Source: Phoronis australis
Taxonomy: Eukaryota; Animalia; Phoronida
Direction of reading: 5' to 3'
Assembly (NCBI GenBank): GCA_002633005.1
Contig: NMRA01000191.1
Span: forward strand, 426,466 to 490,465
DNA: 64,000 nucleotides
Part shown: piece by piece, positions 41,601-47,600 of the stretch
Position numbering within the stretch: position 1 is the first letter of the stretch
How the letters are laid out: each line of letters starts with the position of its first letter
Translations under genes and position numbers: made by a program
The notes under the pieces: model-generated
The model's input: only the letters and a program-made list of their open reading frames with translations
What the model was told of the DNA's origin: nothing
Databases searched by the model: none

Positions 41601-44600
41601 TGTATGTTTGCCTCCCATCACAGGCAACAATTAAAAGCAAATGTTGGATGGTTCAGCTTGACAACTCAACTCCTGCATTGAAATGATAAAACTACCAGCG
41701 AATACTAAACTTTATTAATGCAATCCAACTGTAGATGCACCTTGGACACTGGTCATCATACGATGCTCGGTGTATATGCCTAACAATCTTTGCAGACCAG
41801 GAGCATGTTCCCCAATGCAAGATACAAGTGAGTGGAAGATGGTGAGATAACGTACTACGTTTGAAATGTACAATGACATCAGCTCCAACATTAACACACA
41901 TTCACAAGAAACCAGACTTACGGATTGCAGCTCAAAAAGGAAAAGGATACAGAATCTGAATATGGAACAAAAGCAGCATGGACACCGACCGTATCAAACA
42001 AACGCCTATTAACAAAACAAACATCCGAAGGCCTTTACAGTTTAAATTTCTAATTGGAAACTGTCAAGCTGATATAAAATTCAATAAAAAAACAGAAGGC
42101 AAAAATACCGTTACTACTTCCTTGCTTAATTTTAATGTATGCTTCCCCCCTCCTGCTAAACCTGTTCACACAATTGTGCAGTGCTCCTACATAATTACGC
42201 TTGCTTTAAAGAGTTTTAAACGTTAAACATGTAAACTATACGTTATGGAGTGAGTAGTACATAGTTCAGGTATGTATTTGTACTTGCTGTGACTGAACAC
42301 CTACAGTTTCCATATTCTTAGAGACTTACCTGCATATCTGGGGGTATGGATTCCAGGGCCTTCTGTATGACACGACAGCCGTACATCTGTAGCGCCAACG
42401 GCAGCACGTGACCGCGCACGCGCTGTGCTAAGGTCTGCTTCTGGTCGGGCGAGCCGAACTCGAAAAACTTTTGAATAACATAGTTGCCAAACACGTCCGT
42501 CATGAGACTGTATGCCGCTGTCAGGATCTCGTTGAAGACCATCGCCTTCTCTGCAGGCGTCGCCCGCTCAAGCTTCTGCTGAATGAACCTGGAAACAAAG
42601 TGAAGACACACGCACACGTTAGCACCATGAACACAACAGTTGACACACAGCAGGCCAGATCTCATTCTTGTTCAGTGAAGACAGTACAAATACGATACAG
42701 TAATTCTTCACTTTATTAGCGCACCACATGGTGGACAAGTGGAATTTCATCTCATCGAAATTCTCAACTAATATATAAACTAGCCAAATTTTAGTCTTTC
42801 AATAGCTCAGCTCTTCAAAACATCTGGCTAAGTTTCCATTACCGAGGAAGCCAACTTCTGAAAATGTCAATTTTGGCAATTACGTTTGGGCGAAATAAGA
42901 ATAAGGATATTAATGTTTGGCTGGCATTCACTTATGAAAGAATAAATAAAAGACTATACTTCTTCCAAAATCATAACTTTAAATGGCCACCAATGGACCT
43001 TTATTGCAAGTATAAATTCAACTCTTAATATAAAACTTGAATACTTTTCTACTACTAGTGTTCAGAACTTGGGCAAAATGCAGTCTCTCAAAACCAAGGA
43101 AAAACGCAGAGCTTTTTGGGTCACTAATACATGCCTATGGCAGGCAATGCTAGTGCATTTGACATAGCTCATGAAAGTGATCAATCAAATCAAACGCAAA
43201 ACAAATTATTGACGTCAGGGCACTTATACTAGCACAATAGATTGAAATGTGCTTTCAAGAGTTCTCAAAATAATAACCTAATGCACTAAAACCTGGCTTA
43301 TCCTTAAATTCTCTAACAGCACGTCTTGTGACAGAAAATGACATCTCATTCAGCTGAGGGAAGAGGCATACAGCTCGGCTGTACATATGACTGGCAAATA
43401 CTGAGAGCACAAAAAGTGCCAACGCACTGTCTCTAGTAACTCTTAGATCTCCCAAGTTTGAGCAAATGTTACTCTGAACATGTGTGAAAATGCGCGGCTC
43501 TGCCTCTCTGCTACAGTCACTGCAGCTCAGAGATGATTGCAAGCTGTACAGTTCAACAGGAGGAGTTCGAGCTGGGCATAATCCAAGGTCTCAAGACGAA
43601 GTTAATCTACAACACTGCGGTTGGGGACCACTCACTGCAAACGTGTACCCGTACTGTGAACCTTGCCGGGAGAAGGACCATTTAAGGTGCCACGGCATGA
43701 ACGTGTCAGACCAGTGTATGACTAAAATCAATTTGGAGCATATCAAACATCACAGAAAAATAAACCAAAACAAAACTGAACAAGACAGCAAAGTCAATAA
43801 CAACGTGTGAAAACAGAGACTGGTAAAAATGAATACAGAAGTGATTTCAAAGACAAAACCACTAAATTTGTAGCATGAACTTTCTTTCTTTTATTTAACA
43901 CACGTGAATTCCCACTTCCACACAACAGTGAAATGGTTGCATATCAGTCACAAGACTGACAATTACAGTGACTGGTGTTACAGCATTCATGGCGAGGCCA
44001 AACGTGACCCCAGTCCAACACTGGCAATGGGGAGAAAGTGAATAGAAGCACGAGTGCCAGCAGGTAGAACTACCATGCACCGGGCATCTTTCACAGGACT
44101 ATGGTCCTATGGAGGGCAATGGGGGAATAGGAAAGGAACTTTCCTGAGGGAGGTGTCAGAGTACGGGGGAACACGACCAAATATGAGGAGAGTACGTGCA
44201 CAACTCTTGTGCCGGGCACGACATATTTGCTCTCCTAGTTTGACACTGCAGAAAGCCTAGACATGGCAAGTCTAGTCCCGTCTAACCACTCAAGACTGGC
44301 CACATCTGGGGCGGCACTAAGTCTCAGCAGTGTTGAAGTAATGCCCAATATTAGGCTTCATACAAAGCAAACGTGTCATACAGCATATTTGAACTGACAC
44401 TGCATGGCCTGCATGTCAGTCAAAAGAATTGATTTCTAGAGTGTTTCTCATAGCATGGTACATACACAAAACTTGCCAGATTAATCATGAAATTTCCACT
44501 CTGACATGACTGTTCACCTTACAGTAACACTTCAACCTAACACTAAAGTTAAAGAAAATGCCGTCACAGCAGCCTAAACAAATACACCATGACCACAACA

Positions 44601-47600
44601 GATGCAAGTTCACATCACCAATGCTGCCAACCCATTACACACATAATCTGTGACTTTCATGATAAAAATCCATATTGTGCAAGTGAAAACTTAGCCCTGC
44701 ATTACCATTACAAGCTGGCAGATTATGAACTACATCATGTACCTGGACCCGTGCTGGTCCTGCGAGAACTCGACCACATGGTTGATCAGATCTTTGAGCA
44801 GCAGGTTGGGGATTCGGTTGTTGCGGAAGTCCTCTAGCAGTCGACTACGACCGGTCTCCTTGGACGACATACTGGCACCCCTGGCTAAAGTACCACGTGG
44901 GTTGAAGAGTGAGTTGCCACCAAAGAGGCCTCCAGCAGAGCCACCAAATGAGCCATTTCCTCGGTACTTCGCCTCCGCACCTGGGGCTGCACTATACAAC
45001 CGGCCCCCTGACCCAATGCCTGCAGATGAATGAGAAAGAGAATACAGTCCCACTTAACGAATGAAATGAGCGTGGCGACTACCCATCATAGCTCTCGTAC
45101 AATTTTATGACAACCTGAATACTCCTAACACATAGGTTGGCCAATAATTAAAGAGGTCAATGGCAAAATAATTCACCCTTACACCTGTTTAAGCCTTACC
45201 CTGCTGCCAATTAGCTCACCAGTGTCATGGTGGCGTTAAACAGCACGGTTGCTGCACACATCATAATCGAGAAGCAGTGAATTATTTTTTAGCCGTCGTC
45301 ATGTTAGGATTGATCAGGGGAAAGTGTCGTCCATACAACATGGCTGGACTGTTCTCAAGACAACAAGGGATAGTGCGCATACGAGTATAATTAGCTAGTA
45401 GTCCTTAGACAATGTTCAGTCGAATCCTCTGAGGAGGCATACGTTTTCCAGGATTTAGTGCTCGGTATATTACCATTGTGTTTATTGTGTTTACAAGAGA
45501 TGCCTCCTGCAGGACTTTTGACGCCACTTGACACTCCAGTGGAGATTTAACAAATAAAACACGTTCTGATCTGTGCGATCCACACCACCCAAGAACTGTA
45601 AACGGAGTTCAGTCACCACAGATTTAACAACTTCATGTCCATGCATGAAACTCTTTTCCAAACATCCCGCCTTATTGTGCTCTGTAGTCAAAACAATGGC
45701 AGGTGAAACAGCAGGATAAGGGTTAAAGCATGAAATGCAATTGTGTGCAAGTTCTAATAGATAACGAATACTGCTCAACTGACGAGGGAAATCCCCCGAC
45801 TGAATGGTGCCTACCTAGACCAAGACTGGATGAGGATCCAGATGGGGGTGGGGTAAGTGACTGACCAGGTGGTTGTACTAGGCCCATGGGACCAGCTGGC
45901 GACGCACTCACACCAAGACCTCCATAGAACTGTTGACCAATAGGAAGCGGGCGCGATTTGAAATCGCTGCTCATTGGGTCACGCTGGTCCATGTCTTGAA
46001 AAAACACAAACATTGTATGAGGCGAGATTTATCAGTGTATCTCCGCATAGCCATCAGGTTGTTTAAAACTCACACTGTGCACAACAGAGCCTTCCAAACA
46101 ATTTTTGGAGACTGCAAAAGGTGAGTGGCATAAGAGACATTAAAACTTCCAACAAAACACTTGAAAAATACATGCATTCACTTCTTTCTAATGATACTAA
46201 GAATTTATGTCCAACAGCAATTTACTGAAGTGGCAACTCCTAGCAAGACTCCCTAAACCAGAGAAACGGAAACTTTGTTGAAAATCTCTGGTGCACAACA
46301 ATTATTACATTACATTAAAAATGTGAGCATACGCAGCTCTCCGTCCCTCGCTATCGCCACCAGCAGGGACGGGCATAAGCCGGGCATAATCCTAAGCCTC
46401 CCGTTATGGGAGGCGGAGTTATTCTACAACACCGTGGTGCGGGCTCCACTCCTCGGAATATTCCCTCATGTGGGGGTGAGACCCCACATTTTTCCTCGTT
46501 AACGGGCAGAATGACAAGACACAACACCTCAGCAGGTAGCCGAGATGGTCAAGTCCCGTACAACCACAAAGACAGGCCACGCCGAGGGCGGCTTCAAGTC
46601 ACAAGACACGTGTTCTAGGGAGAAACGTCAAACCTTAGTGATGACAGTGTTGCATTAACTGAACTAGTGCATCTCATTAGTCATGGCAGTTACACTCAAT
46701 CACCCATACGCAACAAGCCAACAACACAACATTGACCTGAAGTCTACTCACATTACAGCACTTTAACCAGAACAGCTACGCACAACGATACTTTCTTAAG
46801 TTACCAGGCTTAGATACGTATGCTTATATCTATTGAAATTACGACCAATTCTCGTTTCTCAAATCTTCTAAGTGAGCATTCCTCAGGTTAATGTGGACAT
46901 TGTAGGCATGCTTTCTAGACATATAGGAGTCACTGCTTACTCCCAGATCCTATGGCACCTGGATTTTGGGAGGAGGCACCCAGTCCACCCAAGCTGGAGT
47001 TGCCAAATCCGCCCTGTTGGTTCATCCCCATTCCGCTGGTAGGGGTGAACAAGCTGTTGGAGTTGGGTCCAAAGTTGTTTGCTGGGTTGAAGCCTGCAAA
47101 AACACGAAACAGCTTGAGAAACGACATAGGACGTAGATGACAGACCAACAACCATGACAGACTGACACAAAGATTCTTCAGGAAGTTTGCCTCAAAGAAT
47201 GGCATAAACATCAGCTGGCACGTTTTTTTTTGGTTAGAAACACATCTGCGAATAATAGAGATTGCACGTGTGGTTTTATGACAAATGCAGAGCGCAAAAC
47301 ACACTTACAAGGAAGAATAATCTTCTTTTAATGGATAAAGCACACTTTTCTGAACAAATGAAGTATTATAGCAAGAACAAAGTTTGCGTTAACACAGTAA
47401 GAAATGGAAAACAGGAAGAGATGTGACTCGGGAGGATGTGCTGAACTAAAACATTTGTAATGCAGGCAAAGACTATCAAAGACAAGACTCAATTCATTGA
47501 ACACGACTGGGAGACTTTCGAGTAGTAATGTGGTGAATGATCACGTGGGACCAGATACTAGTGGCCTCTGGAGGACGACGATGCAAATTTACCTTTGTTT

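Follow-up and report, generated by a model that had tools for sequence, protein, structure and literature searches.

A putative U17-like H/ACA-type RNA of about 856 nt in a Pumilio intron of Phoronis australis and its predicted pairing with 28S helix 90

Pumilio introns and their U17-type RNAs

A 64,000-nt stretch of the genome of the phoronid Phoronis australis (GenBank assembly GCA_002633005.1, contig NMRA01000191.1, positions 426,466 to 490,465 of the forward strand; hereafter, the window) carries, on its minus strand, a Pumilio gene that hosts two H/ACA-type RNAs, XL and X2. Both are intronic and sense to the host, as stated in the preliminary description of this DNA; the Pumilio introns are fixed in reads by splice joints (42586/44741 and 45018/45814) and by loose ends at 45994. 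A divergent Pumilio exon has 53–68% identity to scallop, annelid, and gastropod proteins (12 hits, 306 candidates), nearest matches by which the host is probably a lophotrochozoan. Another protein search with a divergent Pumilio exon gave no match. Three canonical copies of U17/SNORA73 also lie inside Pumilio introns (Rfam, 90–93 bits). The U17-type features are listed below.

40228–40460, minus strand: canonical U17/SNORA73 copy a, m1/m2 intact, 93.1 bits
41361–41593, minus strand: canonical U17/SNORA73 copy b, m1/m2 intact, 90.5 bits
50932–51164, minus strand: canonical U17/SNORA73 copy c, m1/m2 intact, 90.2 bits
43480–44335, minus strand: XL, U17-derived H/ACA-type RNA of ~856 nt, 3' end predicted (alignment to X2, terminal stem, read step)
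44327–44335, minus strand: 5' strand of the XL terminal stem P1, partner 43618–43610 (inverted repeat; helix common to U17b and X2)
44248–44334, minus strand: XL 5' segment (U17-type P2 hairpin and P3 base), homologous to X2 46614–46532
43635–44247, minus strand: expanded arm of the XL 5' domain, ~600 nt, with nested long-range helices
43603–43608, minus strand: XL box H (sequence; aligns with the U17 H box)
43568–43575, minus strand: XL 5' pocket arm, in place of m1, complement of the 28S helix 90 3' strand
43495–43501, minus strand: XL 3' pocket arm, in place of m2, complement of the 28S helix 90 5' strand
43483–43485, minus strand: XL box ACA, three bases before the predicted 3' end (sequence)
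46319–46615, minus strand: X2, short XL paralog of ~297 nt
46425–46420, minus strand: X2 H box, with arms at 46383–46376 and 46340–46334 and ACA at 46324–46322
46370–46380, minus strand: 11 nt between two near-identical X2 repeats, absent from other alleles and including the 5' pocket arm

By their sequence, XL and X2 are genuine U17/SNORA73 paralogs. Around the H box, similarity to U17 scores 39 and 41 against 17–18 ± 3 for shuffles, a level reached by none of 300 (blastn E 0.003 and 0.001 in the window), in keeping with the preliminary description; the H boxes of the form ANANNA (43608–43603 and 46425–46420) and the ends three bases beyond ACA (43480 and 46319) reported there are likewise present in the sequence. 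Both RNAs have the U17-like build of 5' domain, boxes, and hairpins, but not the m1 and m2 elements of the family. X2 has the extent and layout originally described, with a terminal stem, H box, internal hairpin (p 1.0), 3' hairpin, and ACA (fold z −3.37); its lower P2 is weak, and its minimum-free-energy structure gives another fold of the 5' domain.

The other RNA was originally described as X1, of 240 nt and with its 5' end at 43719, and here the description needs correction. Taken as 240 nt, X1 has a fold no more stable than those of shuffled sequences (z +0.82), and its putative 5' domain at 43725–43620 is unlike that of X2 (p 0.86) and unlike that of U17 (p 0.25). The segment 44334–44248, on the other hand, matches the X2 5' end (score 60 against 17.8 ± 2.8 for shuffles, reached by none of 300; nhmmer E 3.4e-5), and the nine bases 44335–44327 pair perfectly with the strand before the H box, spanning 708 nt (p = 0.97 in the fold). 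Together with a rise of reads at ~44335, these observations make X1 the 3' terminal portion of a single RNA, XL, that starts at ~44335 and is ~856 nt long. P1, lower P2, P3, and the 3' basal stem of XL map onto U17 helices, and P1, P3, and the 3' basal stem are paired despite changed letters. Judged from sequence comparison, the length of XL is accounted for by ~600 nt of growth in P3, an expanded arm with long-range helices at 44167–44160/43655–43648 (p = 0.99) and 44108–44101/43681–43674 (p = 0.94). Yeast snR30 is large for the same reason, namely an expanded 5' domain (PMC12095548; PMC7601244). A separate RNA at 44335–44014, in which another copy of the strand (44021–44014) would close the stem, is improbable: neither an H box nor a 3' domain lies after it, and across the middle of XL the similarity to U17 and to X2 stays within chance (p 0.08–0.82).

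No Rfam family was found over X1 or X2 at E ≤ 10 in a search that scored the three true U17 copies at 90–93 bits, which agrees with the earlier view that no named family is represented. Against RF00045 (cut-off 74 bits), X1/XL and X2 give no score, and over 43400–44420 the search returned just three sub-threshold C/D fragments (E 0.35–3.2). Telomerase RNA carries a TTAGGG-repeat template 5' of its H/ACA domain; no such template was seen by eye in the XL and X2 sequences, and there was no Rfam hit.

XL and X2 share with U17/SNORA73/snR30 (RF00045) the terminal stem, P2, the P3 base, the H box, the internal hairpin, the 3' hairpin, ACA, and an intronic location; arms at the pocket base of the 3' hairpin and a 5' domain of variable size are also common to U17 and XL. 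Known sizes range from 207 nt in human U17 to 606–609 nt in yeast snR30 (PMC7601244; PMC12095548). Unlike U17, XL and X2 have m1/m2 replaced, no ES6 pairing, a predicted 28S target, and no Rfam score, and XL extends to ~856 nt. The topology is also reversed, in that the 5' segment of the target lies on the 3' arm of the guide in XL/X2, and the arms stand 8–9 nt from ACA rather than 7 nt as in U17 (PMC2664660). By its m1/m2 positions and its Rfam result, XL thus falls outside the U17 family, although it is built like U17 and is predicted to act as a U17-type chaperone at another site.

At 35935–36023 (minus strand), ~2.6 kb downstream of the Pumilio stop codon, lies a decayed U17 3' half (74–76% identity), in which m1 is kept, m2 has one change, and ACA is lost.

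Arm replacement and complementarity to ribosomal RNA

Alignment to U17 shows m1 and m2 replaced, as originally reported. The motif pair proposed at that time is exact at just two sites in the 64 kb, X1 and X2; the GGA..AUGC half of its first motif, however, is the counterpart of the U17 internal-hairpin base and 3' basal stem, so that the true m1/m2 replacements are CCRGCUYR and AGAGCYG. The upper stems of XL and X2 are unlike in sequence and paired in both folds.

Targets were sought in proxy ribosomal RNA (rRNA), namely 46 pieces of eukaryotic rDNA recovered by a primer scan within prokaryote records; viral contigs had no 18S primer match. The first search used seven long proxies, and tests used the three that span to the 28S end (L053, L071, and L072). 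Independently of the RNAs studied here, at least 46 contigs of prokaryote species-representative genomes (L032–L077) carry eukaryotic 18S rDNA, which constitutes contamination. In the U17 control, the ES6 elements rm1/rm2 ranked 1–2 in four of seven proxy rDNAs, and rm1 ranked 4 in a fifth. In the same search, ES6 was outside the top sites for the XL/X2 arms; the earlier suggestion of a target other than 18S ES6 stands, with 28S helix 90 as the candidate in the proxies.

The arms find their best single matches within one 28S helix, one arm per strand, 60 nt apart and identical in all three full-length proxies, where the XL arms form 7 + 7 Watson–Crick pairs with both strands of helix 90. This was reached by 3/3000 shuffled arms, 3/3000 stem-preserving arms, and 3/3000 random stems with one A–C; two of these three nulls preserve arm self-complementarity. 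With G–U pairs allowed and XL and X2 both required, 8 + 7 pairs are formed (nulls 3/1500 and 8/1500). All four differences between the XL and X2 arms retain pairing by wobble, with the caveat that transitions always suit some target, and the A–C mismatch inside XL opposes a G–U wobble of native helix 90. The 3' strand of the matched helix begins at the helix 90 uridine that is U2944 in yeast, and A2946 and C2948 of yeast also fall in register (PMC13015370). The duplex energies of the arms (−12.2 and −11.1 kcal/mol) compare with −9.8 kcal/mol for the native helix and −6.2 kcal/mol for the closed pocket; with such values, pairing to pre-rRNA that is still unfolded would be more plausible than entry into an already assembled ribosome. 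A canonical pseudouridylation pocket (4 + 4, at least 9 pairs, 13–16 nt from ACA) common to all three proxies was found in neither the XL nor the X2 3' hairpin, in a scan that covered the 3' hairpin and the three proxy rDNAs and passed its self-test. An 18S site pair 45 nt apart (5 + 7 pairs, top four in 3/7 proxies) was set aside as a target, as was an 18S helix-18 pair matched by X2 but not XL (11 pairs).

An 8-nt complement to the region of the helix 90 5' strand also occurs in the 5' domain of canonical U17 (41534–41527) and in the two other copies; such 8-mers number 4 in canonical U17 against 2.1 ± 1.8, with no excess over chance.

The 5' domain of XL contains five further antisense elements.

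44306–44317, minus strand: 12-bp antisense to a conserved 28S site, which we take to be the P-loop (3/3 proxy rDNAs)
44265–44276, minus strand: 12-bp antisense (one G–U) to 18S, presumably the 5' strand of helix 18; 18-nt target intact in 41 of the 43 long-enough 18S loci
44150–44160, minus strand: 11-bp antisense to a conserved 28S domain V site, presumably H88–H89; 8-nt repeat at 43710–43703
44110–44119, minus strand: 10-bp antisense to 18S, also presumably helix 18; target overlaps that of 44276–44265
44053–44063, minus strand: 11-bp antisense to 18S, likewise presumably helix 18; target abuts that of 44119–44110

These five conserved sites of at least 9 nt are extendable to 10–12 pairs; three tile 25 nt of 18S and two lie in 28S domain V. 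Counts as high as those in XL (five sites of at least 9 nt, three of at least 10 nt, and three within 40 nt of 18S) were reached in 42–64, 7–17, and 1–5, respectively, of 3000 local dinucleotide shuffles. Among 588 overlapping tiles cut from the window, the corresponding numbers are 11, 1, and 0. A sense-strand control gave two sites, and the comparison turned up no long insert derived from rRNA. X2 retains only parts of the extra antisense pieces.

The XL 5' end at 44337–44301 (minus strand) resembles the 5' half of SNORD31, with a C-box-like stretch and the same antisense element. At 15.3 bits (E 3.1), with 40 bits as the cut-off and no D' box, this match was rejected, as was a C/D-box reading of the XL antisense pieces, after which no consensus D box was seen by eye.

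Reads, alleles, and neighboring features

Reads sense to the host in RNA runs X6 and X7 reach a depth of ~2 at 44353–44703, 13–17 at 44236–44352, and 6–38 down to 43300, which places a step at ~44340 in two of the three RNA runs (X6–X8). Depth dips at 43768–43884 (6 and 14) and is 24 in the next bin, with no pile-up of starts listed; a second transcript start may lie near 43770. U17a and U17b show like steps where they begin (from 2 to 40–45 and from 1 to 11–12), with 3' extension. We infer that the read pattern of XL, U17a, and U17b represents 5'-trimmed, 3'-extended processing intermediates.

The introns that contain these RNAs are read-covered from the RNA 5' end to the 3' splice site (39923–40460, 41232–41593, and 42590–44340), with coverage up to exon-like in X6 and X7, and with the XL intron uncovered in X8. 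It is possible that this coverage reflects a regulated SPA-like or retained-intron Pumilio species.

For X2, the arm length of 15–16 nt is common to U17, XL, and the window allele, and the 11-nt deletion is probably derived, because the window allele keeps this U17-like length. The deletion takes out the X2 5' arm, and X2 is therefore likely under weak constraint. Run X4, which is filed as DNA and contains spliced Pumilio, has an X2 contig depth of 15.8 and no step, and is little informative. X2 is probably a redundant copy, weak or now decaying. In XL, a common 3-nt deletion allele lies at 43558–43560 in the upper 3' stem, with both arms untouched. The 104-nt core is free of all 15 variants seen in reads (P 0.14).

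Elsewhere in the window, 40854–40887 and 42862–42899 (Pumilio introns) are dispersed-repeat fragments, at which many reads and contigs diverge into unlike sequence, and a tRNA-Thr(UGU) gene lies at 9496–9571 on the minus strand.

Possible function of XL and competing explanations

With roughly even confidence, we propose that XL works as a U17-derived H/ACA chaperone retargeted to 28S helix 90 in large-subunit assembly. Under this proposal, U17 would have been duplicated within the Pumilio introns, with three canonical copies keeping the ES6 job and one lineage changing its arms to fit helix 90. XL would be released by splicing and trimming and bound by dyskerin, Nop10, Nhp2, and Gar1; it would then hold the helix 90 strands apart on unfolded pre-rRNA early in large-subunit assembly, with the intervening 60 nt looped out. 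The lack of a canonical pocket suggests that XL would not direct pseudouridylation. The extra antisense pieces of the 5' domain may provide secondary contacts, like C2/C3 of snR30, which has comparable contacts (PMC7601244). A wider role, in which XL is an ~860-nt scaffold that clamps both helix 90 strands with the A-loop subdomain looped out and also reaches the P-loop, H88–H89, and 18S helix 18, is a tentative and rather doubtful extension.

snR190 and U3 of yeast, both named in PMC13015370, are non-modifying chaperone snoRNAs that differ from XL in being of the box C/D class and in having other targets. Like XL as proposed here, they have several pre-rRNA antisense elements and a role in folding, not modification.

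A number of observations weigh against the retargeting of XL. On the side of the target, the proxy rRNAs are unrelated to the host, and the target search covered rRNA alone. A strict test gave the U17 control a score of just 9, with ES6 missed, and X2 taken by itself preferred an 18S helix-18 site (11 pairs). The XL arms pair with each other in the fold (p 0.99), predicted stems contain most of the extra antisense pieces, and the statistics for those pieces were picked after the elements were seen. On the side of expression, the RNA runs X6–X8 belong to one study, of which 18–19% of each run was read; run X8 is almost without XL reads (depth 0–3), XL reads pass the ACA end up to the 3' splice site and do not support the predicted 3' end, and X2 has a depth of 0–2 in X6–X8 with no step in any of the three. 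The 11-nt X2 deletion is present in the covering contigs of both contig runs (sequencing runs X1, 5.4 of 5.4, and X4, 15.8 of 15.8). On the side of constraint, two variants break confident pairs against 2.62 expected by chance, the whole-XL fold has z −2.13 (20 shuffles) with one of 13 other 858-nt stretches folding lower, and a metagenome pattern scan gave 31 loci and no homologs, all loci being GC-rich and coding-like, with no H box or nhmmer match, so that the new RNA family of the preliminary description is at most a candidate.

Several of these observations are also what would be expected if both RNAs were decaying U17 duplicates without function, in which core proteins on the XL terminal stem and H box block 5' trimming and so produce the read step, and the rRNA matches are due to chance. 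The X2 deletion allele and near-absent X2 reads point this way, as do folding and variants without a constraint signal, and the dead 3' half at 35935–36023 indicates that U17 copies do die in this region. We nevertheless regard decay as an unlikely account of both RNAs: arm matches such as those observed were reached in just three of 3000 in each of three nulls, the terminal stem closes across 708 nt, P1, P3, and the 3' basal stem pair with changed letters, and the upper stems of XL and X2 differ yet pair. The claim that selection rather than decay shaped the two RNAs fares differently for each, being only indirectly supported for XL (rRNA complementarity and the read step) and doubtful for X2 (deletion allele and few reads).

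The RNAs could also be functional in another manner, with a pocket that is a closed stem or serves a non-rRNA partner, or as a 3'-extended intron transcript that affects Pumilio splicing or sequesters proteins. Since the arms pair with each other, the pocket may be merely a closed stem, and depth from 44340 to the 3' splice site (12–34) compares with 23–60 in exons. Extended species of this kind are described (SPA, snoRT, and sno-lncRNA; PMC10557570); they share with XL a snoRNP-protected 5' end and 3' extension through the host intron, whereas in XL both ends belong to one U17-type fold. This set of explanations appears rather improbable, as a closed stem leaves the A–C mismatch and the helix 90 match unexplained, and the 3' extension occurs also in U17a and U17b and therefore looks like a general processing intermediate.

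It is very unlikely that XL and X2 belong, in diverged form, to a guide family already described but missed by Rfam, such as SNORA10/snR37 (U2944, human U4521) or SNORA53. The 5' arm does match rRNA immediately 3' of U2944, the position expected of a guide to this uridine, and the helix 90 region of the peptidyl transferase center is scaffolded by snR37, itself a long H/ACA RNA (PMC13015370), a role also predicted for XL. Neither 3' hairpin, however, has a canonical pocket in all three proxies, the 3' arm pairs 60 nt away, the scaffold is that of U17, and the CCUUAGA element with which the SNORA53 5' pocket guides human 28S U3747/U3749 (PMC8763049) is absent from the XL and X2 sequences, which have no Rfam hit. 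snR37 modifies U2944 by a canonical 5' pocket and has a 3' hairpin without a pocket (PMC13015370); XL, in contrast, has a 3' pocket predicted to address both helix strands and no canonical pocket.

The retargeting of XL to helix 90 is a sharp prediction, with two 7-nt arms and one helix. We know of one target of U17/snR30, 18S ES6; retargeting to helix 90, if true, would be a new job for the U17 family. In the literature covered, which left most subscription papers and Marz et al. (2011) outside its scope, no U17 paralogs with replaced arms, no U17 in Pumilio introns, and no H/ACA RNA pairing with both helix 90 strands were described. Fayet-Lebaron et al. proposed that the recognition mode of U17/snR30 could explain other orphan H/ACA RNAs (PMC2664660), and a natural U17 paralog retargeted to the peptidyl transferase center would be a direct case of that proposal. 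Helix 90 passes through alternate pairing in early large-subunit folding, during which the region refolds (PMC11024185); XL would add an animal RNA chaperone to these poorly resolved steps. If the multi-site reading is true, XL would represent a new mode of H/ACA target recognition and a multi-site chaperone for functional centers of both ribosomal subunits, and the U17 scaffold would be naturally reprogrammable.

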